IMG/VR virus record: IMGVR_UViG_3300031417_000379
DNA from: a virus
Taxonomy: Duplodnaviria > Heunggongvirae > Uroviricota > Caudoviricetes
Strand: one strand, 5' to 3'
Length of the DNA: 64,000 bases
In this document: one piece after another, positions 1,302-33,117 of the stretch
Layout of the letters: each line of letters begins with the position of its first letter
Numbering within the stretch: position 1 is the first letter of the stretch
The notes under the pieces: model-generated
Seen by the model: the letters and a program-made list of their open reading frames with translations, nothing else
Database searches by the model: none
What the model was told of the DNA's origin: nothing
Program-made: the position numbers and the translations under genes

Positions 1302-2387
1302 TTACTTCGTGGCAGGGATCACCACGGAGTTGTTGCCGCTCCAGCAGGAGAAGCCTGCAGGCAGCTTGTAGTTCGACGAGATAGCGTCAGCTACAGAGTC
1401 AAAGCACTTGGAAACAAGCACGTTCGGATCGTTGCTAACAGAGTCGGAGAGGGTCTTGTTCGCGTTGGCCTGAGCCTTGGCGGTCTCCTCCTTCTGCATG
1501 GCGATACGAGTTTCACCGATGGCAGCGATGTAGTTGTCCAGCTTCTTCTGTGTGTTCGGCGCGAGCTTCAGGTTGGAGAACGTTACGGACTCGATGTTCG
1601 CCAGCCCTCCGGTCGCCTTAAGTCGAGCCTGCATGTCCTCGGTCATGTCCTTGGAAACAGCGTCGTAGTCGGGCGAGAAGGAGACGGTCTGGCCAGTGTT
1701 AGTGCCCTCTACCTTCTTAAGCTCAGCAATCGGATTGTAATCCTTCAGCGCCTTCTGAACAGCCGCCTCAAGCTGAGTAGAGACAACAGCACTGCGGAAC
1801 GTCTGCGTCGGATCGTTCGAGCGGTAGTTCTCGTAGATCTTAGCACCCGATTCCGCGTTGATGCTCCAGCGGTTAGTGATGGTTGCGTGAGCCACGCTAC
1901 CATCACCGATACGGACCGGAATAGTGTACTGAGCGTTGTACTCGTCAGTCTGGATTGTTCCGTCGATCGAAACGATCTCGGCCCACGGTGCCTTAAAGTT
2001 CAAACCGGAGTGGCGAGTGTTCTGATCAACAGCACCGAAGGAGACCACAACGCCAACGTTCTTCGCAGAAACGGTGGTGAAACACATGCTCACAGCGATG
2101 ATGAAACCGATGGCTGAGAGCAAGATACCGCCGTAGAACATACCGAGGTTAGCACTCTTAGAGTACTTCGGGCGCTGAGCGTCCGGCGCTGGGGAGTTGT
2201 AGGAGTTCGAGTCGTCGTTTCCGAAGATAGCGCCACGGATGCCGCTCTTTCCGTGGTTACCTCCGGAGGCTGCAGTCGCGGCAGAAGTCGAACCTGCAAC
2301 CTTACTCTTACTCGGGCGCTTCCGAATAACGACGACACCTCCGACCAACATAGCCAGAGCGATGATGAAGCCGAGGATGTGTACCAT
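1302..2387 (-). CDS. SPFH/band-7 (HflK/HflC-like) membrane protein
   Basis: N-terminal TM helix after a basic/Gly-rich segment, then VGVVVSFGAV...GLNFKAPWAEIV resembling the start of SPFH domains (HflK: GLHFKIPFI). Confidence 0.6.
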   Translation of the reverse strand: MVHILGFIIALAMLVGGVVVIRKRPSKSKVAGSTSAATAASGGNHGKSGIRGAIFGNDDSNSYNSPAPDAQRPKYSKSANLGMFYGGILLSAIGFIIAVSMCFTTVSAKNVGVVVSFGAVDQNTRHSGLNFKAPWAEIVSIDGTIQTDEYNAQYTIPVRIGDGSVAHATITNRWSINAESGAKIYENYRSNDPTQTFRSAVVSTQLEAAVQKALKDYNPIAELKKVEGTNTGQTVSFSPDYDAVSKDMTEDMQARLKATGGLANIESVTFSNLKLAPNTQKKLDNYIAAIGETRIAMQKEETAKAQANANKTLSDSVSNDPNVLVSKCFDSVADAISSNYKLPAGFSCWSGNNSVVIPATK

Positions 2388-2444
2388 AACAACCTTTCAA
2401 GTTGAATTAGGCACATCTTACAAGGCTACGCGTTCATAGTCAAA

Positions 2445-2927
2445 CTAGACGCCTTGGACAACTTTAGCTTCCTCTAACGAAAGCCCGGGCCAGATATAAG
2501 GCAGCCCTGGCTTCGTGTCAGCAGCGAATGCCTGTCCGTAGATAGTTGGAGCTTTAGCTGAAAGTACGGAGCGGTGAGTTTCGTGAAGCTTCTCGTCGCC
2601 GATCCAGTTCGGAAACTCATACTCACCAGCTTTATAGGCGCGAAGCTCATCGGCTGTGAAGAGCGCTAACGACTTCTCCCAGCAGGTGTCTTTAAAGCCT
2701 CTTGAGAGCCACTCGTCGACAGTGACCTCCTGATAACGGAGTAGAGCGAGTTCGTACCCCCACCACATACGGGCCGCAGGATGACGTGACCAACCACCGT
2801 GAAGTCCGCCTTGCCCTTTGAAAGCCTTGAGAACCTGGTACGTCTCTACTCGCTGTTTACCGAGTCGCTTGCTGTCGAGGAGCCCTACAGAACGAGCGAA
2901 ATCGGGGTAAGGGAGGAACGTTTGCAT
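2445..2927 (-). CDS. hypothetical protein; weak resemblance to bacterial pyrimidine-dimer DNA glycosylase-like family (tentative)
   Basis: 160-aa ORF; N-terminus MQTFLPYPDF..LLDSKRLGKQRVE..HP has a pattern reminiscent of the MRLWSLHPKYLD..GLVALWRE family; product assignment is low confidence, the CDS itself is likely real. Confidence 0.55.
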   Translation of the reverse strand: MQTFLPYPDFARSVGLLDSKRLGKQRVETYQVLKAFKGQGGLHGGWSRHPAARMWWGYELALLRYQEVTVDEWLSRGFKDTCWEKSLALFTADELRAYKAGEYEFPNWIGDEKLHETHRSVLSAKAPTIYGQAFAADTKPGLPYIWPGLSLEEAKVVQGV

Positions 2928-3026
2928 GAGAGGCTTCTTCCTAAGCTTGAGGAATTGTGCGTGCGTAAGCTATAACGCTCTACAGCTCTACTTCATTCCG
3001 ATTCGTCTACGAATCTACAGCTAACA

Positions 3027-3068
3027 AGCTTCAAGGGACACCCGAATTAACGGGTATCCCTTGAAGCT
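3027..3068. terminator. imperfect 19-bp inverted repeat (1 mismatch) with 6-nt loop between two minus-strand genes
   Basis: aagcttcaagggacacccg-aattaa-cgggtatcccttgaagctt lies downstream of the 3119 stop and upstream of the 2927 start; no U-tract. Confidence 0.4.
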
Positions 3069-3118
3069 TTAGACTGCTAGGGGGTGGCGCTTTTTACAGC
3101 GTTCGCCTCTCATGCAGC

Positions 3119-3301
3119 CTACGGTTTAAGCCGATCACTCCGGTCGGAGCCGGAATGGTCAAACCCAGCCTTGTCATCAGCTCGTTCCGCTCGAGCCTCG
3201 TGAACCTCTGCCTCGGTATGCTCCTTAGCAGCCTCAGCCTTATTCTGTAGCCCTTCGGCCAAATCCGAAGCTTTTTCCTTGATGTCATCGAATCGGGACA
3301 T
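3119..3301 (-). CDS. small charged protein, CsbD-like (tentative)
   Basis: 60-aa ORF rich in K/E/A (KEKASDLAEGLQNKAEAAKE), resembling CsbD-type stress proteins; short, so low confidence. Confidence 0.4.
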   Translation of the reverse strand: MSRFDDIKEKASDLAEGLQNKAEAAKEHTEAEVHEARAERADDKAGFDHSGSDRSDRLKP

Positions 3302-3436
3302 GAATGCCTCCTTCTAACCTTGGATCGGGGCGGCCACCTTAGGCCGTCGTTGTTGGTAGCTAATATCAAGCGGAGTCGGTTGTTAGCCGCAGTTTCCATA
3401 AAGGAGCCTGAACTCTAGGTTTGAGTTTCCTGCTTC

Positions 3437-3769
3437 TTAGCAAGCCGGTCGTAGCTTGTCCACATCTTCTGGAGAGAGGTTTAGCAAGCGATACCAACGG
3501 TCACAGAAGGTCAGCTTCTCGAGCGCTTCGCGTTCTTTTCGGCGAGGCGCCTCCGGGAATCCGTTATATGAGCACCAAGCGTGCTCACCTGTGGCTCGAT
3601 CGCGGATATCAAGCCAAACGACTCCTCGATCCGAAGCTCGTGTTTTCTCTACTCGAAGCTGCACCACATCGATGCTTCTATTGAGCTTCCGGTTGACCTC
3701 GCCGATGAGGCCAACCGCGCTCTGTGCAAGTTGTTCTGGGGTTTTGTCCATGTCACCCTCCGTACTCAT
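3437..3769 (-). CDS. hypothetical protein
   Basis: 110-aa ORF on the operon strand; overlapping plus-strand ORFs judged spurious. Confidence 0.55.
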   Translation of the reverse strand: MSTEGDMDKTPEQLAQSAVGLIGEVNRKLNRSIDVVQLRVEKTRASDRGVVWLDIRDRATGEHAWCSYNGFPEAPRRKEREALEKLTFCDRWYRLLNLSPEDVDKLRPAC

Positions 3770-3808
3770 GCGGTATATCGCCTATGTGTAACACCGCCAG
3801 CAGTATTT

Positions 3809-4387
3809 CTAATCCTGCGAGTAAAGCATGGCTTCCACTTCGAGCTCCGTCAACGGCGCACGAAGACTAGCGGCGTCTTCTTTAGTAATGAGATCTTCAA
3901 CTAGCCAGGCGTCCACTGTTTTCTCAAGGGAGTCGATGAGCACCTGTAGATGCTTTAGAGGCTGTGTTGATGATTCTAAAAGCCCGTTGGCTATAGCCTC
4001 AGAGATAAGTCGGTGACTGTTTTCAAACGGCTGACGAAAACCTTTCTGCTTTCGGTCAAAGCTTCTCACTGCGGATTCGATGCGATACTTAAGCATACGA
4101 TTTCCGGAGAAACGAAGCTCAATAGTCTCGACTTGCTGCTCAAGCAGGCTAACGAAGAACGGCATTCGCTTTGAGGGGTCACCGATGGCCCAATCACGAG
4201 CTTCAGCTGCTGGAATGAGAGCTTGAAGATAGGCTTTAAAGCCTTCGATCTGTGACTCAGGCGAGTTAAGAGCGGGCCATTCCACTAGCTTCACCTCGCT
4301 TGGAAAGTCCTTGTAGCCGGTCATCGTGGTAGCCGTCTCGATAGAGCGATTGAGTCGCGCTAGCAGCTCTTCAGTAGTAACGATCAT
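3809..4387 (-). CDS. hypothetical protein
   Basis: 192-aa ORF, divergent from the plus-strand gene at 4457. Confidence 0.7.
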   Translation of the reverse strand: MIVTTEELLARLNRSIETATTMTGYKDFPSEVKLVEWPALNSPESQIEGFKAYLQALIPAAEARDWAIGDPSKRMPFFVSLLEQQVETIELRFSGNRMLKYRIESAVRSFDRKQKGFRQPFENSHRLISEAIANGLLESSTQPLKHLQVLIDSLEKTVDAWLVEDLITKEDAASLRAPLTELEVEAMLYSQD

Positions 4388-4411
4388 CGTAGGCCGCCTA
4401 ACTGTTAAAGC

Positions 4412-4432
4412 TCGATAGGATAGCTCTATCGA
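4412..4432. promoter_or_regulatory. inverted repeat tcgatag-N7-ctatcga (with a gatag direct repeat) in a 69-bp divergent promoter region
   Basis: Lies between divergently transcribed 3809..4387(-) and 4457..4960(+); aaaggag RBS 8 nt before the 4457 ATG; candidate operator for the adjacent wHTH-like protein. Confidence 0.35.
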
Positions 4433-4456
4433 CTTGAAGTCACAAAGGAGACTCCG

Positions 4457-4960
4457 ATGAAGACACCTCAGCTTGCATCCCAGAACGGTCGCCGAGCCTT
4501 TCGTGCCCGCCGTGGCGAAACCGCTCTAGCAGTACTTTCAGTGTTAGCGAGCGGGAAAGGTGCTCTTACTCCTGGAGGCATCGCAAAGCGCATCCGTGAT
4601 CTTTCTCGCGGTGAGTGGGCGGTCACCACATCGTCAGTGAACGCACAGCTTGACGATCTCCTTCGAAGCAAGCTGGTCTACAAGACCTATCGGGACGACC
4701 CGCTCACCGGTTCAGATTACTACTACAGCGTAGAGCAGTCCGGAGTCAACCGTCTTACGACTAGCAAAACAGCGCTCGACGCTCTCTGGTCTAACTTCAA
4801 GGAAAGCTCCTCGGACGGATCGCAGCTCGAGGTGGAGCTTGAGAAACTGCAGCAGGCGTTGACCGTTGTGGATAAGCTCCCTGACGATCGCCTCAACCGG
4901 ATCACAGCGGCGGTGGCTGACCTTCGCAAGACTATCTACACCGTCCTCGCCGAAGACTGA
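4457..4960 (+). CDS. putative winged-helix DNA-binding regulator
   Basis: 167-aa ORF with a good RBS; segment LASGKGALTPGGIAKRIRDLSRGEWAVTTSSVNAQLDDLLRSKLVY looks like a wHTH (MarR/PadR-like); one of only two plus-strand genes. Confidence 0.6.
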   Translation: MKTPQLASQNGRRAFRARRGETALAVLSVLASGKGALTPGGIAKRIRDLSRGEWAVTTSSVNAQLDDLLRSKLVYKTYRDDPLTGSDYYYSVEQSGVNRLTTSKTALDALWSNFKESSSDGSQLEVELEKLQQALTVVDKLPDDRLNRITAAVADLRKTIYTVLAED

Positions 4961-5011
4961 CTTACACTACTCCCCCTCGCTGCGCGAAACGGCGAGGGGG
5001 AGTAGTGTAAG
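4961..5011. terminator. bidirectional intrinsic terminator (perfect 20-bp stem, 11-nt loop)
   Basis: cttacactactccccctcgc-tgcgcgaaacg-gcgagggggagtagtgtaag exactly between convergent genes 4457..4960(+) and 5018..5641(-). Confidence 0.7.
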
Positions 5012-5017
5012 TACTAC

Positions 5018-5641
5018 TTAGTCAACACTAGTCACTAGTAAGGTAACCTCAAGGTTTACTAGCCCCTTGCGGAGAGCTGTAAGAGTAGCCTCTACCTCAC
5101 GCTCCTTGAGATTGTGATTCTCATAGTACTCGAAGGTGTCGATCAAGCGCTCACCATAGGCGATGTAGTTGTCTAGCCAGATCTCCGGTGGGTTTGGAGT
5201 AGTCAGAATCTTGAAAGCTTGAAATGAAAGCATCTCTTCCAGCAGTCGCCCGGAGCGGCAAGACTCCCCGTTAAAAGGGATTGGTTTTGTGACGCTTAAG
5301 AAACTTTCGACAGCCTTCATGACTGGAGTGTAGTGTTCCCAGCGTACCAACACACCTGGAAGTTCGGCGGCTAACTTTTCTTTCAGTGCTGCAGCATCGT
5401 GAATATCCAACGCGCTAATAGCGCAATCCTCTAGATCAGCAGCAAAGCTGGGAAGCGCTCTTAAGATCTCTATGATGCGATTCTCATCTTTGAACATCAC
5501 ATAAGGGTCTTGCTCCCAAAACTTCATGAGCTCTTGATTAGCTTCGGTGAGAGTATTGCGATGAGCAACAGTGGCCACCGGATGCTGCAGCGTGTAGTCG
5601 ATGAGATCCATCGTTTGGCGAGATCTGCTCTTGTACTTCAA
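5018..5641 (-). CDS. tandem-array protein A (~200-aa predicted all-helical, unknown function)
   Basis: Last of 12 consecutive similar-sized ORFs; its stop region overlaps the next gene's start (translational coupling). Confidence 0.8.
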   Translation of the reverse strand: MKYKSRSRQTMDLIDYTLQHPVATVAHRNTLTEANQELMKFWEQDPYVMFKDENRIIEILRALPSFAADLEDCAISALDIHDAAALKEKLAAELPGVLVRWEHYTPVMKAVESFLSVTKPIPFNGESCRSGRLLEEMLSFQAFKILTTPNPPEIWLDNYIAYGERLIDTFEYYENHNLKEREVEATLTALRKGLVNLEVTLLVTSVD

Positions 5642-6261
5642 ATTGAAAGCTCCACCCGCATGGCAATCTCGAACTTATCGAGGTAGCTAAGAGTTCTTGC
5701 AAGTTCTTCAGAATAGGCTTCAGGCCAATCTGCAGTTACGGCGGTCTTGAAAAGCTGGAACGACTCATCAAAGGCTTTCACTAACTTTTCACCGTCTTCG
5801 ATAGTTACGTTTTCCCCGTAGAGGAAGTCATAAATCTCATCGTAATGGCTCCAAAGTTGATCCGTTCCTTCTTCATCACCATCATCATCGAACAACGCTT
5901 GAAGCGCCATGGCTGCATCGAAAGCTAGGTCACGAAGAGCTGTGTGACTTCCGAAACGCTTGAGAACCTCGTCACGGCGTGTGCGTACGTAGGCTACATA
6001 CTTAGAGTACTCTTTAGCAAACTTCGGTTGCGCTTTAGCTCGTTCTTCATACTGGAGCATGAGGGGCTCGATAGTCTTTAGAGCCGGCTCGTACTTAGAC
6101 AACGGAGTATCAAAGAACACAACGCTATCCGCCGCCTGTTTGAGAGTTTGAAACTCGCTTAAGCTCTTGATGAAATCATCTGCGTTGTCCAATAGCTCGA
6201 AGAAGAGATACGATGCACTTTCTCCAGCTCTAAGTAGAGCTGCTGCGTACTGCATCTTCAT
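5638..6261 (-). CDS. tandem-array protein B (~200-aa helical, unknown function)
   Basis: 207 aa; 4-nt overlaps with both flanking array genes. Confidence 0.8.
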   Translation of the reverse strand: MKMQYAAALLRAGESASYLFFELLDNADDFIKSLSEFQTLKQAADSVVFFDTPLSKYEPALKTIEPLMLQYEERAKAQPKFAKEYSKYVAYVRTRRDEVLKRFGSHTALRDLAFDAAMALQALFDDDGDEEGTDQLWSHYDEIYDFLYGENVTIEDGEKLVKAFDESFQLFKTAVTADWPEAYSEELARTLSYLDKFEIAMRVELSI

Positions 6262-6860
6262 TACGATGTCACACCCTTAACTGTTTCGATTTCGGCTAGT
6301 ATGAGCAACGACTCAAGTCGATTGAGCATGTTGATCAGTTGATCGTAGTCCGAAGCCATTAGTGAGCGAGTCCGAGCTTCACTCTCTAGATAGCTCCGCG
6401 CGAGGTCTTCTCCACGCTCAACAAGAGCGTGTACCTTTGAGAGATCAAGTTCTCGTGATGAGAGCAAATCGCCGGCGAGCAAAAGCGTTTCGTTACGTCG
6501 ATTCTCCCCAGCCAGATAGCTCATCTGATAACGTCTACAAAAGGCTGTAAACTCATCGATCACATTACGAAGAGGATCAGGTCTTACTCTCAACATCACG
6601 ATAGAGAGTTGTGCTTCGAGTTCCTTCATCGCGCCGAGCGGGAAACGAGTGTTAAGTCTCTCGCGCACATCCTTCTGAAGAAGCTCGAGCAGACGGTCAC
6701 GCACCCGAGGTTCCATAAGCATGCTGTAGAACGCTCCAGGCGAAACAAAGCTTCTAACCTCTTCGCTAAGGTAATCGATCACAGCGTAGTAGCGGTCTTC
6801 GAGGATCTCTACTTCCTCGCCAAACGGCTTGTAGCTATTGACGATGCGATGACTCATCAA
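6261..6860 (-). CDS. tandem-array protein C
   Basis: 199 aa; coupled start/stop overlaps. Confidence 0.8.
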   Translation of the reverse strand: MMSHRIVNSYKPFGEEVEILEDRYYAVIDYLSEEVRSFVSPGAFYSMLMEPRVRDRLLELLQKDVRERLNTRFPLGAMKELEAQLSIVMLRVRPDPLRNVIDEFTAFCRRYQMSYLAGENRRNETLLLAGDLLSSRELDLSKVHALVERGEDLARSYLESEARTRSLMASDYDQLINMLNRLESLLILAEIETVKGVTS

Positions 6861-7486
6861 TTTACCTCTTCAAGTAAGTACAGCACACGAAGCCTGTCAA
6901 GCCGGCGTTCTGCAGAAGCTATACGCTCTGGAGATTTTGTAGCGTCACATTGCGTAAGGAAAGCTTCAATCAGCTGTGTAAGCTTATGCTCCTCATCCTC
7001 GTGAAGTCGAAGCTGACGCTGTACCCAAACAGAGTACTCTACGATGTCAGAAAAAGCGTTGGCAGCTCGAGCGCCGATAAACGCGCCATCCCCAGATGTC
7101 TGAAGAGGAAGAAGTTGGCGAAGCTCCGCCAGCGTTTCGGAAAGTTGTGTCTTGAACTGCACCATGTGCTCAAAGCGCGGAGTGAGCTCATTAATTTGAT
7201 CAGCGATGGATTTGTAGTGCTCTACAAGCTTTCTAGCCGCCAAGGGTACACCCTCACCGTAAAAGTCGATCCCCTGGCTCTCAATGAGCTGTCGTATAGT
7301 CGGTCTTACCTGGCCTAGAAGCTTGAGTACCGAGCTGTCTGTTACCTTAGTTCGAGCGTAGCTAAAGAGCTCGATGCTAAGTGACTCCGCCTTGCTAGCG
7401 TTCTGGCATTCCTGACTAAAGTTGTGGAGCTCTTGGCTTAGACTCTGCAGAGCGCTATAGCGAGAGTATGGATCCCTACGCATCAA
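6857..7486 (-). CDS. tandem-array protein D
   Basis: 209 aa; coupled. Confidence 0.8.
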   Translation of the reverse strand: MMRRDPYSRYSALQSLSQELHNFSQECQNASKAESLSIELFSYARTKVTDSSVLKLLGQVRPTIRQLIESQGIDFYGEGVPLAARKLVEHYKSIADQINELTPRFEHMVQFKTQLSETLAELRQLLPLQTSGDGAFIGARAANAFSDIVEYSVWVQRQLRLHEDEEHKLTQLIEAFLTQCDATKSPERIASAERRLDRLRVLYLLEEVN

Positions 7487-8096
7487 CTACCTCCAGTATC
7501 ATAAGTTGAGCTTCGATGTGATCGAAAGCTGAGTGGAAGGTTTCAAGCACCTGGCGATGTGATCCGTTGCCGTGGTTAGTCACGAGCTCATCCAGCTCGT
7601 TAATAGTCTCGAGAAGTCGTTCAAAGTGAATCTCGCTTGCCGTCCGGGCTCCCCAGATTGGAGTGAGTTCTCGTCGCATATCGCTGAAGATAACGTCAAG
7701 CCGATCACTAAAGACGTAGCTTGTAGGCGGAATCACGCCCGACCCGAGATTGGTCCAGAGCTGGTCCACCGCGTAGCCCAACGGGTCCTTAAGTAGAACG
7801 AGCGCTCCCCAGCGAGCCTCGATGAAATCAAACTCATCAAGAAGCTCGTGAACGCTCTCGACGAACTGAGCGTCCTCTTTGCGCTTGCGGCTTTGAGAAT
7901 AAAACTGAAGTGCTTCACGCAGCTGTTCAAAAGTCAGCAAGAAACTGTGAGCATCACCGATGTGGTTATACTTTCGGAGTGCCTCGAGCTCAACGCTGAG
8001 CTTTGGGACTGTGCTGCTCACAACAGCGTTCACCTCTACGAGGAACGTGTCCGTAGCCTTTTCACGGCTAAGTAAGCTCTTGCTATACCACTTCAC
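7476..8096 (-). CDS. tandem-array protein E
   Basis: 206 aa; 31-bp gap to the upstream member. Confidence 0.8.
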   Translation of the reverse strand: MKWYSKSLLSREKATDTFLVEVNAVVSSTVPKLSVELEALRKYNHIGDAHSFLLTFEQLREALQFYSQSRKRKEDAQFVESVHELLDEFDFIEARWGALVLLKDPLGYAVDQLWTNLGSGVIPPTSYVFSDRLDVIFSDMRRELTPIWGARTASEIHFERLLETINELDELVTNHGNGSHRQVLETFHSAFDHIEAQLMILEVVDA

Positions 8097-8127
8097 TTAT
8101 TCATAGTACGCCTGAGCTAGCCGTCTG

Positions 8128-8733
8128 TCAATAGAGCCCGACCATCATGGCCTCGACCTCGAGCTTCTGTATAGAGTCAAGATGTTCATCACGAAGACTT
8201 GTGTGGAGGGTCGGAGCTTGAACCTGATCGTGGATCGTGTAGTTCAAATTGATGAAGTCTCTTAAAAGTCCCTCGTCTATCTCGCGAGCTTTCAGAAGCT
8301 CAAGCGCGCAGTCCTCCAGATCTTCGTAAAGCGCACGTCTTTCCGGCGGAAGCGCCTCCGCAGTGCGGAGAAAATCAGCGCTTAGAGCTAGCATCGCCTG
8401 GCGTCCAGCTATTTCGATGTAAAGCTTAAGCTTCGGGTTGTAGTACCAGCGCGCTAATACGTCCTCGCACTGCTTTAGAATTGGGCGTGCTATCTTCGTG
8501 TACTCCTGCGCTCGCAGAGGTGAATCTTTTACCATGCGTCCGGAGTAAGAGGCTTCACGAGTGAACTGCTCGAACAGTTCTAGGAATTCACTGTGCTCGC
8601 TATCACTGTCGTTGAATAACTTGCCAGATTCAATGAGAAAGGTGTCAACTAGGGAGTATACTCTGGGCGGCATTGCTGTACGCTTAAGTTTCTGAGCCGC
8701 GGCCATAGCTGCGGTTGCTCGTGTTTGGATCAT
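8128..8733 (-). CDS. tandem-array protein F
   Basis: 201 aa; coupled. Confidence 0.8.
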   Translation of the reverse strand: MIQTRATAAMAAAQKLKRTAMPPRVYSLVDTFLIESGKLFNDSDSEHSEFLELFEQFTREASYSGRMVKDSPLRAQEYTKIARPILKQCEDVLARWYYNPKLKLYIEIAGRQAMLALSADFLRTAEALPPERRALYEDLEDCALELLKAREIDEGLLRDFINLNYTIHDQVQAPTLHTSLRDEHLDSIQKLEVEAMMVGLY

Positions 8734-9347
8734 GTTTGAGCTTCCTCTTGTTCAGCGTAGAGATCGGAAAGGACCGAAGCGACCTCAAAGTTTTCGAGCA
8801 GCTTATCAAGCTTTTTAGCTAAGTCCGACGGATAAATCGAGTCCTCAGCTTCATGCTTGATCGCGCGGAGAAGCACAAGCGTTCGCTCTGCTGAGACCCC
8901 AAGAGAGTCAGTTCGTAGACTCCAATAGGCGGTTGACTCGAAGTCTTGATGATAGACTGTGATAGCCTGTCTGCTCACTTGAAACTGTCTTAGCAGATCT
9001 TCGAGCGCCGTCACCACTGTTTCAACGGCCTGTCGGTACTCTGGGGGCTTACTCACTCGAGTGAGCAGCATTTCAAGCTGATCTCGGTATTCGTAAGCAG
9101 GGAAGTAGCTGTAGCTTTGGGCGTCCTCGAGCCACTCTCTATCGCTACTGAGAACAGCTATGAGATCGCGCATCATGGTGATGAGCTCAGCCTCTTTTTT
9201 GGGCAAGCTCGACTTATTCTCCCTGTAGCTTGAGAGTGCGCGCTTTGCTAAAAACTCGATATCGAGATGAGTAAAGGCCCGAGCGTCTCGAGAGATACTC
9301 GTCAACACGTTTGCCACTTCCTCGTCAAGACTCCTATAGTAGAGCAT
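8730..9347 (-). CDS. tandem-array protein G (start chosen at internal ATG 9345-9347 with gaggag RBS; longest ORF extends to 9440)
   Basis: The longest ORF would overlap upstream gene H by ~100 nt; the internal Met preceded by GAGGAG gives a 205-aa product and a 14-nt overlap. Confidence 0.7.
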   Translation of the reverse strand: MLYYRSLDEEVANVLTSISRDARAFTHLDIEFLAKRALSSYRENKSSLPKKEAELITMMRDLIAVLSSDREWLEDAQSYSYFPAYEYRDQLEMLLTRVSKPPEYRQAVETVVTALEDLLRQFQVSRQAITVYHQDFESTAYWSLRTDSLGVSAERTLVLLRAIKHEAEDSIYPSDLAKKLDKLLENFEVASVLSDLYAEQEEAQT

Positions 9348-9903
9348 CGATACTCTCCTCACGCTTACTAGCGTAAAACTCTGGATAGTAGCCAATTCTG
9401 GTGACGAGCTTTTGAGCTTCGATAATAGCTTTATAGACATTGAGGCTATTGATCTGAGAAAGACGATTCGAGTTAAATAGGTCCAATGTTAAGTAGTAAG
9501 TGGACGCGAACGCGCTCAGCAATTTTAGCTCATCCAGGTTAAGCGAAGAACTCCTCGTTTCAAGCTCCTCTACCACGGAATAAAGTAGGTTGAGCATCGC
9601 TTCAACTTCTTTGCGAACATCTTCTTGCTTTCCCCAGTAATTCCAGAGCTTGACAGCTTCATCAAAACGATCGCTAGCAATAGCCGAACCTTGTGGCTTG
9701 AGAGCTAGAGTCTTGAAGTGCTTCTTGAGCACCGCTAGATGCATCTGGATAAGCTCACTTTGAGCGATTGGATCGCTGCTGAGATAACCTTTCAGAACGG
9801 TTGCAGAGTAGTACGCATCGTTTGATAGCTCTTTGCTACCGTCGCCACAAATCACCTCATTTAAGAAGCGTAGAGTCAACGTCCTTCTATCGCGGTAGAT
9901 CAT
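9334..9903 (-). CDS. tandem-array protein H
   Basis: 189 aa; coupled to I. Confidence 0.75.
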   Translation of the reverse strand: MIYRDRRTLTLRFLNEVICGDGSKELSNDAYYSATVLKGYLSSDPIAQSELIQMHLAVLKKHFKTLALKPQGSAIASDRFDEAVKLWNYWGKQEDVRKEVEAMLNLLYSVVEELETRSSSLNLDELKLLSAFASTYYLTLDLFNSNRLSQINSLNVYKAIIEAQKLVTRIGYYPEFYASKREESIDALL

Positions 9904-10514
9904 AGGAGCGTCTCGAGAGTGATCGCTGTCTCAAAGTCCTCAATAGCCTCTTCAAGCGCATCCATTCGTGCGTTGGCTAACACGTCGTTGGGAAAGCTCT
10001 TGCACAATGCTACTACGTTCTCTTTGAATAGGCCTGCTAGCTCATAAGCAGCTTCTTCGTCAAGGCTCTCTGAAGCGTAGAATCGCTCGATGGCCGGTTG
10101 AAGAATGGCCTTACGCGGCTGAAACAGCTCGGCTGTTGCACTGCTTCTGTCGACTGTAGTTCTCGTGAGCTCCATAACTCTTTCAAGCTTGAGCTTGAGC
10201 TGCGGCCTGTGAACAAAACGAGCTACGGTTGCGTCAGTGTAAGGCACGATCCAGGATACGAAAAGCTCTAAGACTTGGCGCTTCATCGGTAAACGAACCG
10301 AACGAATTACCTGCTTAAGCGTCGGCTCAACATTCCTAAGTGTGGCTAAAAGAGGCGGATTACCCTTAGCTCTACCCTCGGTACTACTACAGTAGTAATG
10401 GAGCTCATTGCCGAGCTCAAGAAGCTTTGGGACTTTCTGATGACGCCCGATTGTCCGAAGCTGATCAGCAATCTCAATCGCAGAGTTATAGCGTGTCAGG
10501 TAAAACCTATCCAT
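9900..10514 (-). CDS. tandem-array protein I
   Basis: 204 aa; shares motif VPKLLELGNELHYY with J (LAKLSKLGGQLHGF) and K (LPKLLEVGSTLDAQY), supporting paralogy. Confidence 0.8.
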   Translation of the reverse strand: MDRFYLTRYNSAIEIADQLRTIGRHQKVPKLLELGNELHYYCSSTEGRAKGNPPLLATLRNVEPTLKQVIRSVRLPMKRQVLELFVSWIVPYTDATVARFVHRPQLKLKLERVMELTRTTVDRSSATAELFQPRKAILQPAIERFYASESLDEEAAYELAGLFKENVVALCKSFPNDVLANARMDALEEAIEDFETAITLETLL

Positions 10515-11103
10515 TGGTTACCTCGTGCATGAGCGTAAGTACCTCAAGTCGCTCAATACCAGCCTCAAGCTTCGGCTTGAGCTCGCGATTAGAGCCGGTG
10601 TCAGCGGCGAAAGCCTGCACCTCGCACGCAAGCTCCAGGAACTTGGAAAGAGCCTCGCCGGTGAGTGATTCTCCGCCAAGAATAGAGATAACGATGGCCT
10701 CTATAGCAACGTAGCTGTCTGATCGCTCCTGACTCCACTGGTAACCCAACTTGTAGAGACAATCCATGACCTCGCTCACAGCTGCCTTTGTCTGTGGCTC
10801 AACAGTGAGTCGATTGTAGAGCGATGTCACAGCAACTTCGGCTTCGTTGCGGTAAGCCTTGAGCCGTTCTCTCTTATCATCGTTACGCACGTGCCTAATG
10901 TGACCGTCGATCACCGGAAGAAGAGTTGGCAGTAGTTTGATGGCGCCCAACCGGTGCGGCTCACTAAGCTCACTCCGGTATGAAAATCCGTGGAGTTGGC
11001 CTCCGAGCTTTGAAAGCTTAGCAAGCCCAAGCCTTGAGCCGGTACGCTGAGCCGTGATTGCAAGATCCAACAGCTCTTTCACCGCCGGCATGTACTTGAT
11101 CAC
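10507..11103 (-). CDS. tandem-array protein J
   Basis: 198 aa; paralog motif as above. Confidence 0.8.
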   Translation of the reverse strand: MIKYMPAVKELLDLAITAQRTGSRLGLAKLSKLGGQLHGFSYRSELSEPHRLGAIKLLPTLLPVIDGHIRHVRNDDKRERLKAYRNEAEVAVTSLYNRLTVEPQTKAAVSEVMDCLYKLGYQWSQERSDSYVAIEAIVISILGGESLTGEALSKFLELACEVQAFAADTGSNRELKPKLEAGIERLEVLTLMHEVTNG

Positions 11104-11267
11104 TAAGGTCTCCTCTAAGCTTTTGCCGATCTTATCATGAGAAAGTTAGGTTGGCAATCGGTAACAAACGCTCTAGATGACAGTTTAAGCGTTTGTAAAG
11201 CTAGGATGACAGGTTGTACGGCTCTTCGCCAATCTACTGTTAGCGACTGATCTCGTCACTTAGAAGC
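11104..11267. promoter_or_regulatory. 164-bp intergenic region inside the array with a 9-bp inverted repeat and gatgacag direct repeats
   Basis: acaaacgct(11164-11172)/agcgtttgt(11188-11196) inverted repeat; gatgacag at 11176-11183 and 11205-11212; the only sizeable gap in the 12-gene array, so a candidate internal promoter/operator. Confidence 0.35.
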
Positions 11268-11915
11268 TTAATTATCTGTCACCGCGAAGTCGAGTTCAAT
11301 CTGAAGCTCTGCTTCTGCTAGAGCGACTTCCATTCGTGAGGCGGCTACAACGCTATCCTGCTCTATCTGAGCCACCATAAGCTCGCCTAGCTCAAAGAAA
11401 CGGCTGAGTGATTCGATTTTCAACTCTCTGCTATCTACCAAGGCAAAAGCTTCCTCGCGAAAAGCATTCTCCACTGCTACTCGAGCTGAACGTCGATGCT
11501 TTCGCCTGTCAACGTTCGCGTCGATGGCTCTGAGCGGCTTCAAAAGTATGGCTTTGCGCGTAAACTGCGAAGTAAAGCGTTCGTAGCTATCAGTAGCAAG
11601 CGGTTCGGCTAGTGCTCGAAGATTTAATAGCGTCTCTCTCGTTTCGTCCTTCTTGAGACGAGAGTACTGTGCGTCTAAAGTTGAACCTACTTCCAGAAGT
11701 TTAGGTAAGCTCTCAGGTTCAAGCTTTCCTTTCCAAAGCCGTTGGCTGTTTGGAAGACTGAAAGCCAATGACATGATACTGGAGAGCTTGTGTTTTACCC
11801 CGTAGTTGTAGAACAAAGCCCGGACTGTCTGCATTCTTACGTGAGCGTTCTCAAGCTCAATCTCCCGAGTGCTCCAAGGGAGTGCCTTGTAGAGCAACGA
11901 ACCCTCAATAGCCAC
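11268..11915 (-). CDS. tandem-array protein K
   Basis: 215 aa; paralog motif shared with I and J. Confidence 0.8.
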   Translation of the reverse strand: MAIEGSLLYKALPWSTREIELENAHVRMQTVRALFYNYGVKHKLSSIMSLAFSLPNSQRLWKGKLEPESLPKLLEVGSTLDAQYSRLKKDETRETLLNLRALAEPLATDSYERFTSQFTRKAILLKPLRAIDANVDRRKHRRSARVAVENAFREEAFALVDSRELKIESLSRFFELGELMVAQIEQDSVVAASRMEVALAEAELQIELDFAVTDN

Positions 11916-12572
11916 TTACAGAACCCCGGTCTGTCGCATAAGAAGAGCAACCTCAAGTTCGTCTTCAGCATCTTTCGGTAGAGCAACCTGCACGCCGAGT
12001 AACTGAAGCTTCGTAATGAGCGCTTCAGCAGCCTTGTGATACTTATCTAGAGTATTGAACGTCACAGTACGGGAGCTCATAACATTCGTAAGCTGGCCAA
12101 CAAGGTTGAACTCTTCAGTTTCAGTTTGCTTACGCTTTGAGAATGCTGCTCTAAGTTGCTCGTTGACACTGTGGTGCAGCTTTAACACCACTGTTTTGAT
12201 TTGTGTGTCACTACTAAGAATCTCAGTGAGGTCAGCAGCAAGTGGCAGCGCAACCGCCTCGAACTCCGCAAAGTCAGCCTTGCGTTCTTCTGAACGGAGT
12301 CGCTTTCTCTGAGCTTCAAGCTTCTGAGCTAGCTCTTTGAGTCCGAGGAATCGGTCACTGGTGTAGAAGTCTGAGCGAATCTTAAGCATGTTGGGAAGGC
12401 AGCGGCCTTGACGAAGCACTATAGATAACCCGCTTGCATGCCCGTAGTCTTGCAGTAGGTAAGTAAGTGTATCGAGCTTCTTATCGAAGGTCCAACCTGA
12501 AAAGTGCTTTGCAGATTTTAGGCGGCGGTAGTAGCTTTGATGTCTCAAAACTCGTCTCTGCGCGGCGTGCAT
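11916..12572 (-). CDS. tandem-array protein L (first member; ATGA overlap with the SNF2 helicase stop)
   Basis: 218 aa; start codon 12570-12572 overlaps the helicase TGA at 12572-12574. Confidence 0.8.
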   Translation of the reverse strand: MHAAQRRVLRHQSYYRRLKSAKHFSGWTFDKKLDTLTYLLQDYGHASGLSIVLRQGRCLPNMLKIRSDFYTSDRFLGLKELAQKLEAQRKRLRSEERKADFAEFEAVALPLAADLTEILSSDTQIKTVVLKLHHSVNEQLRAAFSKRKQTETEEFNLVGQLTNVMSSRTVTFNTLDKYHKAAEALITKLQLLGVQVALPKDAEDELEVALLMRQTGVL

Positions 12573-15409
12573 CAGACACCCCAGGCTCGTCGCTCAGCCT
12601 CGAAGAGAGAGCCCTGTTCGCCGGCAACAGCGTCGTCAAACGCGTGGAGGTCGCTCACGCCGGCGGTGGCGTCGAAGAGCTTCTGCTTCTCGTTCTGCAT
12701 CGCAACCCAGCGCTCATCGATGGTGTTCTTCCCTCGAAAACGCACAACGGTTACCGGCTTGGTCTGACCCATGCGATAAGCGCGGCGAATGGCCTGAGAC
12801 TCAAGTGAGGGCTTGGTCTGAGGCTCAAGGATAAGCACCAGTGAGGCCGCCTGGATGTTGAGCCCGGTGCCTCCCGCCTTGATCTGTGCGAGAAGAACGC
12901 CAGGCTTTTCAGCCTTAGTGAACGCATCCACCTGCTCCTGACGTTCGGATGAGCTCAGGTCGCCGGTGAGCGGGACGAACGGATCATCTTCCTTGAGCTC
13001 GTTCTGCAGGACGCTAATAGCCTCACGATAGAAGCTGAAGATCAGCACCTTGTTGTCGTTGGCCATTGCTTCGCTTACGAGCTCCTTGATACGCTGAACA
13101 GTACTCGACTTCGACCCCGCCAGAACCTTTGCTCGCCGAGCCATGTTCCAGTCACCGGCCTGAAGTGCGCGCTTATAGTATTCAGCGTCGGCTTCGGAAA
13201 GCTCGATGAACTCTTCGGTCTCAAGCAGCTCAGGAAGCTCCTGAAGTACATCTACCTGGTTGCGGCGCAGGTAGGCCGGGGCGATTGCCTTACGGAAAGC
13301 AGTGTAGATGGTCTTGTTCTTCGGCATCTTCAAGTGCGGCTGAACGTACGAAAGAAGCTGTTCGAACTCCTCAAGCTTGTTCTCGAGCGCCGTTCCGGTC
13401 ATGAGAAGTGCACGTTCGCCGGCCTTAACCCAAGGAATCACACCTCGAGTACGAAGAGTCTCCGGGTTCTTCAGATAATGCGCTTCGTCAACCACAGTGA
13501 GATCGGTACTGGTGATGGAGCTCACTAGATGATGAGCGTTTACCTTCTGGATACTCTCGAAGGTGGCTAGAGCAAGACCTCCGTTGGTAGCCCAGCTCTG
13601 GAGGTTATCCTCGAGCTCCTCACCGTAGAGCATGTGCGGTTCGAAGTCCGTGTGCTTGAGTACCTCACGACGCCAGTTCTCAAGCACGGCCAGCGGCACG
13701 ATGACAAGGAATCGGTTGTGATCAGTGTTCTGTAGGTGCTTGGCTAATCCAAGTGCGGTTACGGTCTTGCCGAGCCCCATCTCGTCACCGACAACAACTC
13801 GACGCTGGTGGAGTGCGTACTGAACAGCGAAGGTCTGGTACGAACGAAGCTGAGACTTCATACCTTCGGTCTCGAGTTCGATGTTTCGGATTGCTGCGGT
13901 GAGCTCAGGAGCCAGGAAGCCGGAGATCTGTTCGAGTGTAAGAGCGTTGAATCCGAGTGCGCTCAGCATGGTCTGGAACGTGGCAGGGTTCTCGCGGAAG
14001 TAGAGGCGAGCCTCGTCTACCGTAGGCTCAGCGTACTCCTCAGAAAGACGCTGCAGGCGGTCCGTGTCCGTGTAGGTGTCAAGCGAACCGATCAGGTGCT
14101 TCACCGCAGCCTCGTTACGAGCTACCAGGTGAAGCTGCTCAGGATCATCCTGAAGAAGCTTTGCGAGAGCTTCAAACTGAGTCTTCGAAGGGTGTGGGCG
14201 AAGCTGGTCGAGCTGCAGCTTGTAGCTCTTACGGAGGAATTCCTCAAAGTAAGAGTCCTTATCCGTGAGTCGCGGATAGCCTCGAAGAAGCTTCTGATCA
14301 CGAGCGTAGGTTCTCATGAGCTGCACACCGAAGTTCAACGACTGACCCTCGAAGAGCCGCTCAGCCTTATCGGCAAGACGAAGCACGGCACCGACCGTCG
14401 GAGTCTGATCGCTCGCATCCATGTGAGTTTTTGCGAGGTCGTTGAAGCGATTCTCGAGGAGTCGTCGCGGGAAGCCCTGTCCCTTAGTGTGCTTAGCAAA
14501 AGCCTCCAGCGAGAGTGAGTTCAGGTGGTCACGTAGACGGCGAGTAGTGAGCTTATCGAGCTCTTCACGAAGATCTTCGTTAAGCTGAGCCTGACGCTCA
14601 AAGCTCTTCTGGATCACTACGATTGCAGCCTGGACAGCCTGCATCTTCTCCACGTCGAGAGTCACCACCACCGAGCCGGTGGGGAAGTCCTTAAGTGACT
14701 CAAGCTTTGTGACAGCCTGAAGCCAGTCGCTCAGCTCCGGTAGACGACGCCCAGCCGAAAGGCTAGCGCGAGAATCCATGAGCCCGGCGATGACGTGGAG
14801 GTTACGGTCTCCGGGGTTCGTGGCGGAGAGAAGTAGCTGTGCGGAGCTTCGAAGGTTGACCTGACGCTCATCCTTAGCGACCGGCCACCAGCGCCAGCGC
14901 AGGTACTGCTCAGTGGGCGGAATGAGCTCTTTAAGGTTCTTTAGATCCTGAACGAAGGCTTCTGCGTTCGGCACTCCCCAGAGATCGTGAGCCAGGAGGA
15001 ACCCACCGATGGCTCGCTGAGTGATCTTATTCACCGGGATAGCCACGATGGAGATCTCGCCGTCACGCTGGAACACAGAAATTGCGTTGGAGAAGTCACC
15101 CTTAGTGGAGGAAAGCTCTTTACCAGCATCGTTGAGCAGTTCGTTGACGCTCTCTACGGCCTCGATGGCCACGCGGAGCTTCTTACGGTCTTCGCCGTCG
15201 AGCGCGAGTTTCTCATCCCCGGTGTAGTTCACACGCGGGAAGAACGAAGAATCCTGAGTAGGAGTCCAGTCGTTGAGGAAGCTAAAGTCAGGGCTGTCAG
15301 TCACCGTCTGGAGAAGATCGGTGATCGCGGTGACGCCTCGCGTGTTGATCGCCATGAGCCTACTTTCTTGAACGTTTGTGGAGCGACCCGCTCTTGGGAG
15401 TCGGCTCAA
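12572..15409 (-). CDS. SNF2/RAD54-family helicase with ~500-aa N-terminal extension of unknown function
   Basis: Motif I GDEMGLGKT, motif II DEAHYLKN, motif III LLMTGTALEN, helicase-C GGTGLN and QAIRRAYRMGQ all present in the C-terminal half. Confidence 0.9.
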   Translation of the reverse strand: MSRLPRAGRSTNVQESRLMAINTRGVTAITDLLQTVTDSPDFSFLNDWTPTQDSSFFPRVNYTGDEKLALDGEDRKKLRVAIEAVESVNELLNDAGKELSSTKGDFSNAISVFQRDGEISIVAIPVNKITQRAIGGFLLAHDLWGVPNAEAFVQDLKNLKELIPPTEQYLRWRWWPVAKDERQVNLRSSAQLLLSATNPGDRNLHVIAGLMDSRASLSAGRRLPELSDWLQAVTKLESLKDFPTGSVVVTLDVEKMQAVQAAIVVIQKSFERQAQLNEDLREELDKLTTRRLRDHLNSLSLEAFAKHTKGQGFPRRLLENRFNDLAKTHMDASDQTPTVGAVLRLADKAERLFEGQSLNFGVQLMRTYARDQKLLRGYPRLTDKDSYFEEFLRKSYKLQLDQLRPHPSKTQFEALAKLLQDDPEQLHLVARNEAAVKHLIGSLDTYTDTDRLQRLSEEYAEPTVDEARLYFRENPATFQTMLSALGFNALTLEQISGFLAPELTAAIRNIELETEGMKSQLRSYQTFAVQYALHQRRVVVGDEMGLGKTVTALGLAKHLQNTDHNRFLVIVPLAVLENWRREVLKHTDFEPHMLYGEELEDNLQSWATNGGLALATFESIQKVNAHHLVSSITSTDLTVVDEAHYLKNPETLRTRGVIPWVKAGERALLMTGTALENKLEEFEQLLSYVQPHLKMPKNKTIYTAFRKAIAPAYLRRNQVDVLQELPELLETEEFIELSEADAEYYKRALQAGDWNMARRAKVLAGSKSSTVQRIKELVSEAMANDNKVLIFSFYREAISVLQNELKEDDPFVPLTGDLSSSERQEQVDAFTKAEKPGVLLAQIKAGGTGLNIQAASLVLILEPQTKPSLESQAIRRAYRMGQTKPVTVVRFRGKNTIDERWVAMQNEKQKLFDATAGVSDLHAFDDAVAGEQGSLFEAERRAWGV

Positions 15410-15418
15410 TCTCTTACA

Positions 15419-15460
15419 CTAACGGGCCAGACTCGGTTTGTCAACCGGCTGGCCCGTTAG
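15419..15460. terminator. 12-bp perfect inverted repeat (ctaacgggccag/ctggcccgttag), 18-nt loop
   Basis: Between the BI-1 family gene stop (15471) and the SNF2 helicase start (15409). Confidence 0.45.
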
Positions 15461-15470
15461 CTTTCACTCA

Positions 15471-16139
15471 TCAGCGAAAGATACTGAGGATCCTTAGCAG
15501 ACTCATGAAGATGTTCCAGATGTCCAGGAAGATGTTCAAAGCGAAGACACCGGGGTGGATGTCAGTGCCGTACTTATCCGCGTTCTTCAGGCTCTGGATA
15601 TCCATCACACTGTAGATCGAGAAGATTACGAGCGAACCGATAGCGATGAGCACCTGCAGGGCTCCGAGGTGGAACACGAAGGCGTTGAGAAGCGAGATAA
15701 CGATGACGCCCAGGAGGATAAAGAACATCGGCTTATACCAGCCGGAGAGGTCCTTCTTAGTGGTCCAACCCCAGATCGCCATGCTGCCGAAGACCACCAC
15801 TGTGCCGGCAGCGGCCATCACGATGAGATCTCCCATCCCGGACTGAACGTAGTAGTTCAATGCCGGATATGAGACAGCGCCGACGATGGCTGGGATTGCG
15901 ATGGCCAGCGGACCGGCCAGATACTTAGCCGCCTTACGGACAAACGCGGAGAGCAAGAGCAATCCGAGAGCCACGAAGTAGAGCGGCATGATGAGCGTCG
16001 GAGGGATAAAAGGTCCAATGAGCAGGATGCCGAGAAGCGCCGCTGCGAAGCCACCGGCGAGCCAGGTCATCACCTGCCCAAAGAAGCGAGGTTCAGTACC
16101 TCGCGAGGTGCGAGACGGCTTCAGATCAGTAAAAGTCAC
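15471..16139 (-). CDS. Bax-inhibitor-1/YccA-family membrane protein
   Basis: ~7 predicted TM helices and C-terminal ALNIFLDIWNIFMSLLRILSIF matching the conserved C-terminus of the BI-1/YccA family (..LYLDF.N.FL.LLRIL..). Confidence 0.75.
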   Translation of the reverse strand: MTFTDLKPSRTSRGTEPRFFGQVMTWLAGGFAAALLGILLIGPFIPPTLIMPLYFVALGLLLLSAFVRKAAKYLAGPLAIAIPAIVGAVSYPALNYYVQSGMGDLIVMAAAGTVVVFGSMAIWGWTTKKDLSGWYKPMFFILLGVIVISLLNAFVFHLGALQVLIAIGSLVIFSIYSVMDIQSLKNADKYGTDIHPGVFALNIFLDIWNIFMSLLRILSIFR

Positions 16140-26428: not shown

Positions 26429-26434
26429 CTAGTA

Positions 26435-30670: not shown

Positions 30671-30807
30671 GACTCAGGCCTCACTTAGTTGAAATCAGCG
30701 GTAGTCCGCTGCAGAGTAGCTGATTTGAATATCGACTCAGGGTAAGTCTACAGCGATACGTAGTTCTCTAACTTTGCACGGTCGATTTGCCGTGACGAAC
30801 GTTGAAA

Positions 30808-30856
30808 CTAAGCACCGCGGCCACGCAGTTTTGAAGTGCGTGGCCGCGGTGCTTAG
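30808..30856. terminator. 19-bp perfect-stem hairpin downstream of phoH-like gene
   Basis: ctaagcaccgcggccacgc-agttttgaagt-gcgtggccgcggtgcttag; just past the 30872 stop on the minus strand. Confidence 0.6.
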
Positions 30857-30871
30857 GGGTTACTAGCGAAA

Positions 30872-33115: not shown

Positions 33116-33117
33116 GC

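Follow-up and report, generated by a model that had tools for sequence, protein, structure and literature searches.

The virus record IMGVR_UViG_3300031417_000379, analyzed here as a stretch of 64,000 nucleotides (the window), appears to belong to a huge extrachromosomal element of ~0.74 Mb that is either phage-like or conjugative-plasmid-like. It encodes an SPFH/band-7 membrane protein of 361 aa (1302..2387, minus strand; identified by PF01145, phrog_200 and a structural model) and a Bax inhibitor-1 (BI-1)/TMBIM protein of 222 aa with seven transmembrane (TM) helices (15471..16139, minus strand; identified by PF01027, a match to YetJ and a structural model). The E. coli members of these superfamilies, HflK/HflC and YccA, act on the membrane protease FtsH, and a first-pass annotation of this DNA had proposed that the element uses the two proteins together to manipulate host FtsH. 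We confirm both open reading frames (ORFs) exactly as that annotation had placed them, and both family assignments, and find little to recommend the partnership. The reading that we favor, at a probability of about 0.5, is that these are two selectively maintained accessory membrane proteins that function independently of one another, one an SPFH dome and the other a BI-1 protein akin to YccA and TMBIM5. Their presence as a pair is most likely a coincidental co-residence on a very large genome. BI-1 is the unusual gene of the two, as it belongs to an element-specific clade and is rare on catalogued mobile elements. The SPFH gene is ordinary, a member of a large phage membrane-protein family that is already annotated and functionally uncharacterized.

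Identity and predicted structure of the two proteins

The Band_7 profile PF01145 matches residues 105-308 of the SPFH protein well above its gathering score (E 7.6e-14; 52.6 bits against 23.6), and phrog_200 aligns with residues 79-351 (E 2.6e-36, profile positions 76-351 of 379). Here and below, conservation refers to two family alignments, A1 for BI-1 and A2 for SPFH, and residue numbers are those of the full proteins. The N-terminal part of the SPFH protein comprises a first TM segment (TM1, ~3-22), a disordered linker rich in Lys and Arg, and a second TM segment (TM2, ~77-102). These are followed by an SPFH alpha/beta domain (~103-274), a long coiled-coil helix (~277-318) and a C-terminal motif, DPNVLVSKC...LPAGFSCW, in which Cys328 and Cys348 are invariant across the 42 sequences of A2 (24 columns of the family alignment are invariant, two of them Cys). 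The linker varies in length across the family and, in the window protein, contains 10 Lys or Arg residues versus 3 Asp or Glu. Because the loop between the TM segments is positively charged and the Cys pair is invariant, the SPFH domain is predicted to face the outside of the cytoplasmic membrane, as in HflK/C.

An AlphaFold2 model of the SPFH protein built from the family alignment (pLDDT 82) shows an alpha/beta domain, two TM helices and two further helices, one of ~40 residues and the other shorter. Foldseek matched this model to prohibitin, erlin, stomatin, HflK/C, flotillin, QmcA and vault, at E-values of 2.7e-13 to 1e-5; the first five of these fall at ~1e-13 to 1e-8, and with QmcA included the range extends to 4e-7. 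The region is therefore not a generic beta-rich domain, the weak point that the first-pass annotation had itself named. Searched singly against the PDB, the SPFH sequence gave no meaningful match; the best match of the family profile was E. coli HflC, which was weak (E 1.3e-5) and extended over the TM segment and the first ~70 residues only. The label 'lipoprotein', carried by phrog_200 and by some phage records in RefSeq, was considered and rejected. Cys102, the sole candidate lipobox residue, lies where TM2 ends and is not a conserved position in the alignment of 42 homologues, and the label looks wrong for the family.

For BI-1, the Bax1-I profile PF01027 extends over nearly the whole domain (positions 3-207 of 207; E 2.7e-31, 109.4 bits against a gathering score of 34.1). 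The gene begins with GTG downstream of an AAGGAG Shine-Dalgarno sequence, and homologues begin at the same alignment column. Its AlphaFold2 model, likewise made from the family alignment, has seven helices (pLDDT 87, pTM 0.83), and the only fold matches were chains of B. subtilis YetJ (TM-score 0.74-0.89, rmsd 2.3-3.7 A). The two sequences align over their full length at an identity of 22-24% (E 4.5e-14), which places Arg60, Asp171 and Asp195 of YetJ opposite Arg68, Asp180 and Asp206 of the window protein. Across the BI-1 clade, Asp180 is present in 24/24 members and Arg68 in 23/24, while the position of Asp206 is occupied by Asp in 13 and by Asn in 11. The N-terminal tail of ~17-23 residues is unstructured in the model (residues 1-17 are non-helical, and residues 1-10 have a pLDDT <50), and its sequence varies across the clade, except for a PRFFxxVMTW motif at the start of TM1. 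Kihara et al. are said to have found that FtsH starts degrading E. coli YccA from its cytoplasmic N-terminal tail of ~20 residues.

The two genes are not linked

In the window, 13 kb and ~20 genes separate the SPFH gene from BI-1. One of the intervening genes is on the opposite strand (4457..4960, plus strand; a small winged-helix, PadR/MarR-like protein with weak PadR and MarR_2 matches), and since it sits between the two, they belong to separate transcription units. A scan of positions 1-18000 for promoters and terminators gave results at chance level only. The first-pass annotation had described the two genes as flanking a region composed of a helicase and a 12-gene array. The order BI-1, SNF2 helicase, array is correct, but the SPFH gene does not abut the array: five ORFs lie between them, including denV and the gene on the opposite strand.

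To place this arrangement in context, we compared 183 loci (19 with BI-1 and 164 with SPFH; labels such as L007 designate single loci), each with 10-kb flanks to either side of the gene. The two genes occur together in the window alone. SPFH was found in 0/18 of the other BI-1 loci, and BI-1 in 0/164 of the SPFH loci. In the closest distinct lineage (77% BI-1 identity), the gene directly after denV is FtsK-like, where the window has SPFH, and no SPFH match was found on the whole 45.8-kb contig of this lineage. A scan of IMG/VR with two near-invariant SPFH motifs located 73 loci, none of them on the four BI-1 contigs of 189-437 kb. In addition, the genera of the 572 phage records with SPFH homologues (described below) do not overlap with those of the 10 phage records with weak BI-1 matches. 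Exact-sequence look-ups found the two together only in three strain-level assemblies of this same element (740,336, 189,255 and 30,135 bp). A BI-1 contig of 697,753 bp and an SPFH contig of 697,643 bp were considered as possibly one and the same, and this was rejected based on local GC contents of 54% versus 37.5%.

It is unsurprising that one member each of two very large superfamilies should reside on this element, because it is ~740 kb long and its relatives are rich in host-like membrane proteins. More generally, two plausible homologues on one very large element do not make a system without evidence of their linkage.

The SPFH gene belongs to a widespread phage family

A tblastn search with the SPFH protein recovered 572 phage records at 24-38% identity over ~75% of its length, and the family has at least 162 database matches. 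Most of the phage records are from Mycobacterium (257), Staphylococcus (226) and Streptomyces (62) phages, with others from Gordonia, Arthrobacter and Rhodococcus, and the majority already carry the annotation "band-7-like membrane protein". Strictly lytic carriers include Staphylococcus phage K and the 155-kb cluster C mycobacteriophages, and the family is also present in M. abscessus prophages. Because homologues occur in strictly lytic phages, a lambda-style lysis-lysogeny role cannot be the general function of the family. The genes next to the SPFH homologue in phage Bongo are tRNA, RtcB and MazG genes, and not lysis or protease genes. Gene context also differs among the window and loci L009, L091, L092, L097 and L100, and the relatives examined have one Band_7 gene each. 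The sole functional datum that we found for the family comes from phage LeBron, where overexpression of the band-7-like protein gp49 is mildly toxic (PMC13148394).

BI-1 forms an element-specific clade with conserved neighbors

Including the exact sequence, the BI-1 clade consists of 24 clusters at 45-100% identity, followed by a gap to cellular BI-1/YccA proteins at ≤34% over comparable lengths. A single partial cellular match of 42% was found, in a metagenome-assembled genome (MAG) of Solirubrobacterales. The long contigs in the clade are all 189-740 kb in size, where the longest-contig value for a cluster is that of its representative sequence only (for example, the representative of the window's SPFH cluster shows 6.5 kb). 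On catalogued mobile elements, BI-1 is scarce. PHROG has no family for it, and a comparison with 50,697 phage records gave no full-length match and 10 partial ones (41-58% coverage, 29-37% identity), of which nine are unannotated and most are short fragments. Among the viral structures of BFVD, the significant matches were BI-1 proteins of eukaryotic giant viruses and herpesvirus US12-family proteins, with no phage among them. Weak matches to BI-1/YccA were obtained for 47 of 72,556 plasmid records; most of those listed are large replicons, with 38 of the 47 classed as non-mobilizable. Scans of IMG/VR with the single sequence of either the BI-1 or the SPFH protein found nothing, and alignment-based scans were needed.

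Two genes accompany BI-1 across this clade. The first (16172..16792, minus strand) lies directly upstream of BI-1 and encodes a 206-aa protein with a Hint/intein-N-like N-terminus. It occupies this position in 19/19 related loci, down to a BI-1 identity of 39%. Residues 6-58 of the protein match the N-terminal part of DnaB mini-inteins (PDB 6rix, E 7.4e-7), the first catalytic block is absent, and there are weak matches to intein-containing models as well. The second gene (16789..17697, minus strand), the stop of which overlaps the start of the 206-aa gene, encodes a 302-aa protein that has no match in Pfam, PHROG, NCBIfam or the PDB. Genes for proteins of 302-306 aa are found upstream of the 206-aa gene in L001-L008, L011/L012, L096, L182 and L183, with a weak match in L014. 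These neighbors are kept across elements with local GC contents ranging from 35% to 54%. Four further lineages share the order 302-aa gene, 206-aa gene, BI-1, a gene with an SfsA_N domain, MoxR and a giant gene. The giant gene is TrbL-like where Pfam matches are on record, and no Band_7 gene is nearby in any of the four.

In one 437,576-bp record (IMGVR_UViG_3300012642_000011), the BI-1 locus occurs twice (L015 and L016), in inverted orientation, as mirror images ~74 kb from each end. This suggests either a palindromic assembly artefact or very long terminal inverted repeats.

Proposed roles and alternative explanations

According to the reading that we favor, the SPFH protein would be anchored by a two-helix hairpin, with its SPFH domain, coiled coil and C-terminal cap, the last probably stapled by a disulfide, exposed outside the cytoplasmic membrane. 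Every solved SPFH protein oligomerizes into a ring or dome, and this one would be expected to do the same and so to enclose a membrane patch. BI-1 is predicted to be a seven-helix, YetJ-like protein that carries the Arg/Asp/Asp pH-sensor triad and is inherited as a module with the 206-aa Hint-like gene and the 302-aa gene. In the host membrane it would act as a pH-responsive leak protein for cations or protons, and it may also bind host FtsH as a slowly degraded pseudo-substrate. It could thereby damp the FtsH-dependent turnover of membrane proteins, such as jammed SecY, while the element loads the membrane with proteins of its own. The outcome would be protection of the membrane proteome and, hence, of host viability.

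An FtsH-directed role of BI-1 alone, which is compatible with ion leak, is a reasonable guess that we place somewhat short of an even chance, because there are precedents from YccA, TMBIM5 and actinobacterial genetics. YccA is both a substrate and an inhibitor of FtsH, and mitochondrial TMBIM5, a Ca2+/H+ exchanger, is also an inhibitor and substrate of AFG3L2, a homologue of FtsH (PMC9379554). In M. smegmatis, knocking down the YccA homologue gives phenotypes that correlate with those of ftsH, and for the homologues in C. glutamicum and B. breve such a correlation is seen with ftsH-linked genes (bioRxiv 10.1101/2025.11.14.688347). For the SPFH protein, a role at FtsH appears to be one of several equally unsupported options. 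The sequence data show no tie between SPFH and BI-1, and none from either protein to a CII-like target or a lysis-lysogeny switch. A comparative-genomics paper on jumbo phages (PMC7824862) does not mention SPFH, Bax inhibitor or FtsH.

Several points weigh against this reading. Both proteins score far below the equivalog cut-offs for YccA and HflC. Canonical pH gating may not be the conserved activity of the BI-1 clade, because the second Asp of the triad is Asn in 11/24 members. HflC is the best PDB profile match of the SPFH family and the predicted topology fits HflK/C, so that the first-pass proposal stays in play for this protein. With regard to independence, the locus comparison spans 10-kb flanks, and a looser association of the two genes across the genome may exist. 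Finally, both the host of the element and its nature as phage, megaplasmid or a hybrid of the two are uncertain.

Of the alternatives, the one that survives best, although we regard it as tentative, is that the SPFH protein has a role unrelated to proteolysis and that BI-1 is unrelated cargo. Such a role might be in superinfection exclusion, in the timing of lysis or holin action, or as an envelope-stress scaffold in the manner of flotillin or PspA. The spread of the family over lytic and temperate phages and M. abscessus prophages is in keeping with this, as are the tRNA/RtcB/MazG context in Bongo and the finding that LeBron gp49 is only mildly toxic on overexpression (PMC13148394). The roles of bacterial SPFH proteins are also many; examples are a link of the B. 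subtilis phage-shock protein to the membrane (PMC8581546) and the regulation of aerobic respiration by HflKC (PMC12005517). No one of these roles is specifically favored, however, and a search of the PADLOC defense models returned no match for the SPFH protein, nor for BI-1.

Somewhat more doubtful is the possibility that BI-1 is purely a pH-gated cation (Ca2+/H+) leak channel of the YetJ type that operates independently of FtsH. The element could use such a channel to tune membrane potential, pH or ions, for example, to delay cell collapse or to counter abortive infection systems that depolarize the membrane. YetJ is the only solved relative by both sequence and fold, and the window protein keeps Arg68, Asp180 and Asp206. 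TMBIM proteins of eukaryotic viruses are cation channels, as reported for GAAP (PMC4416878), and giant-virus BI-1 proteins are among the BFVD matches. On the other hand, the second Asp is replaced by Asn in close to half of the clade, as noted above, and ion transport by YccA has not been demonstrated (PMC9379554). Channel activity and FtsH binding are, moreover, compatible, as TMBIM5 does both.

We consider it unlikely that the SPFH protein, as an HflK/C, and BI-1, as a YccA, jointly retune host FtsH, whether in a lysis-lysogeny type of decision or as a block to cell death. This is the proposal of the first-pass annotation, and the superfamily precedents for it are genuine. Prohibitin associates with the m-AAA protease. 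HflKC forms cages that enclose FtsH, structures of which are among the matches of the SPFH protein (PDB 7wi3, 7vhp and 9cz2), the interactions of YccA with FtsH and of TMBIM5 with AFG3L2 are described in PMC9379554, and E. coli YccA binds both FtsH and HflKC (Kihara 1998, as relayed by PMC9379554). The best PDB profile match to HflC and the HflK/C-like predicted topology also speak for it, as does the presence of both genes in 3/3 strain-level assemblies of the element. Nonetheless, each protein misses its equivalog cut-off, and there is a single SPFH gene where HflK and HflC form a pair. The genes, 13 kb apart, are neither adjacent nor co-transcribed, and they are not syntenic in relatives. 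SPFH is abundant in phages that lack BI-1, BI-1 contigs of 189-437 kb yielded no match to SPFH in the motif scan, and SPFH homologues reside in obligately lytic phages. In addition, no CII-like target and no integrase were seen in the 64-kb window.

A broader form of this idea, which we find no easier to credit, is that huge phage-like elements (0.2-0.75 Mb) have domesticated BI-1, invariably accompanied by its Hint-like partner gene, as a cytoprotective factor and that, in the element studied here, an SPFH cage completes an invader-encoded, HflKC/YccA-like control of FtsH. By inhibiting FtsH, buffering ion leak or both, BI-1 would keep the host alive through a long, membrane-intensive infection or residency.

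The least probable explanation, already disfavored, is the recent capture of one or both genes from a host, with the element carrying them as neutral passengers. In its favor, BI-1/YccA genes do turn up sporadically on megaplasmids and chromids (the 47 plasmid records described above), and host-like membrane genes are numerous on the element and its relatives. Against it, each protein falls in a deep clade that is specific to such elements, the motifs are strongly conserved and close cellular relatives are lacking, and BI-1 keeps the same neighbors in elements of 35% to 54% GC.

The element and its other genes

The window is 100% identical, over the comparable 20.7 kb, to a metagenome contig of 740,336 bp from ENA (ERZ27247408:k141_1142885). 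Nearly all of its genes are on one strand, and most have no Pfam match. A megablast search with positions 1-20000 against phage genomes found nothing. Phage-like genes encode a sigma factor, PhoH, a primase, thymidylate synthase, denV and an rIIA-like protein of 823 aa (48438..50909, minus strand; phrog_612, 2.5e-45), beside which lies a Prim-Pol protein gene (50948..52597, minus strand). Alongside these genes is a set resembling Gram-positive conjugation or type IV secretion system (T4SS) genes (25055..41679, also 33118..34665, minus strand). This set includes a 1411-aa 'mobilome membrane protein' with both TrbL/VirB6-like and CD3337/EF1877 matches, an 858-aa coupling ATPase of the VirD4/TraG/TrwB type, a 538-aa protein with a weak TcpC match, a 457-aa protein with a C-terminal transglycosylase, and NikA-like and TadE-like proteins. 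A GmrSD_C-type endonuclease domain is encoded at 34771..35598 (minus strand). We refer to the source as a huge phage- or plasmid-like extrachromosomal element because phage-like genes occur with conjugation/T4SS-like genes and the relatives are huge.

The window also encodes a tRNA with the anticodon CTA, an amber suppressor (63306..63378, minus strand; labeled tRNA-Pyl by ARAGORN, 58 bits with the Rfam tRNA model). Long ORFs in the window end in TAA (20), TAG (12) and TGA (26); as all three stop codons are in use, there is no obvious recoding in this region. An origin of the window from a small cellular genome was considered and rejected, as most genes have no Pfam match, ribosomal and housekeeping genes are lacking, and the sole tRNA is the suppressor. 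The host is probably Gram-positive and possibly actinobacterial. Weak hints to this effect are matches of neighboring genes to DUF6458, Mtb12_C and the Rv0361 family, the closest named homologues of the SPFH protein, which are in Rhodococcus, Gordonia and Mycobacterium phages, and the Solirubrobacterales MAG that is the sole GTDB match of BI-1.

Between the two membrane-protein genes, a denV-like pyrimidine-dimer DNA glycosylase (2445..2927, minus strand; PF03013, E 8.3e-18) is encoded immediately upstream of SPFH. The position of the opposite-strand winged-helix gene is occupied in L007 by a PadR gene (PF03551), which is also on the opposite strand. The array consists of 12 tandem ORFs of ~200 aa each (5018..12572, minus strand), and adjacent copies are only ~23% identical. 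It is lineage-specific. The relative with 77% BI-1 identity has 2-3 copies, interrupted by RF-1-like and PadR genes (a 160-aa RF-1/PCRF-like gene lies near the array in L007/L008), and more distant relatives (L011, L096, L182 and L183) have neither the array nor an SNF2 helicase after BI-1. In the window, the SNF2-family helicase (12572..15409, minus strand; PF00176 and PF00271) matches the PADLOC models DpdE (2.6e-111) and DrmD (4.5e-97) with its C-terminal helicase half only; the N-terminal ~420 residues lie outside the match.

Relatives of the element are found on several independent contigs of 673-745 kb, some of which are filed as viral contigs in IMG/VR. The local GC content of huge contigs with either gene (loci L009-L183) ranges from 35% to 66%, and the membrane proteins of relatives include an Ion_trans_2 K+ channel, VIT1, YitT, DUF808 and giant TrbL-like proteins, in addition to a signal peptidase S26. 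This spread in GC content and the many host-like membrane proteins point to a diverse, largely undescribed group of elements. Related huge contigs also encode an ADP-ribosyl exotoxin-like protein and NrdD/NrdG. Two putatively viral contigs, that of 740,336 bp and one of 745,514 bp that carries SPFH and comes from a different sample (ena:ERZ15609956:NODE_1), are longer than the largest phage genomes cited in PMC11748809 (735, 717 and 676.5 kb).

Comparison with known systems

The closest counterparts of the SPFH protein are the band-7-like proteins of phages, such as Mycobacterium phage Bongo gp116, LeBron gp49 and those of Rhodococcus phage Trina and Staphylococcus phage K, which share the same anchor-then-SPFH architecture. 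The window protein and its closest relatives differ from these in having a longer disordered, K/R-rich linker between the TM segments, and the window gene resides on a ~740-kb element, whereas known carriers are phages of 40-160 kb. With E. coli HflK/HflC, the SPFH protein shares the modeled fold (SPFH domain, long coiled coil and C-terminal cap) and, by its predicted topology, may share the orientation. However, it reaches only 14.8 bits against a cut-off of 134.4 with the HflC equivalog model (TIGR01932, E 0.0093) and does not match that of HflK (TIGR01933). HflK and HflC are encoded as an adjacent pair, whereas the 64-kb window contains no second SPFH gene, and in structure the model lies as close to prohibitin, erlin and stomatin as it does to HflK/C.

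Lambda CIII, a small amphipathic peptide, is a phage-encoded inhibitor of FtsH. The outcome proposed here for BI-1 would be alike, in that a mobile element damps host FtsH; the two have no relation in sequence or structure, and no CII-like target was seen.

BI-1 resembles E. coli YccA in its PF01027 domain and its seven TM helices, and may do so in its N-terminal tail, which is short, unstructured in the model and of borderline length; the YccA model matches residues 47-220 (E 3.5e-12). BI-1 is not an equivalog, as its score with the corresponding model (NF007765) is 46.6 bits against a cut-off of 353, and, in contrast to YccA, it is not chromosomal but part of a module, specific to these elements, that includes a Hint-like gene. 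B. subtilis YetJ, a Ca2+ leak channel sensitive to pH and the one TMBIM protein with a solved structure, matches over the full length and shares the fold and the triad, but identity is only 22-24%, and Asn takes the place of the second Asp in about half of the element clade.

Among viruses, BI-1 homologues are known from those of eukaryotes, namely poxvirus GAAP and the BI-1-like proteins of giant viruses, with no prokaryotic virus in the BFVD matches. If the cytoprotective role considered above were to prove true, the BI-1 protein of these elements would be the first example from prokaryotes to parallel the anti-death TMBIM proteins that poxviruses and giant viruses encode. Mitochondrial TMBIM5, with the m-AAA protease AFG3L2, shows that ion exchange and a role as inhibitor or substrate of an FtsH-type protease can reside in one BI-1-family protein (PMC9379554). 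Should the window protein inhibit FtsH or leak ions, mobile elements would be added to E. coli and mitochondria as settings for the relation between TMBIM proteins and FtsH-type proteases, and BI-1 would offer a tractable bacterial model for the viral "anti-death" TMBIM proteins.

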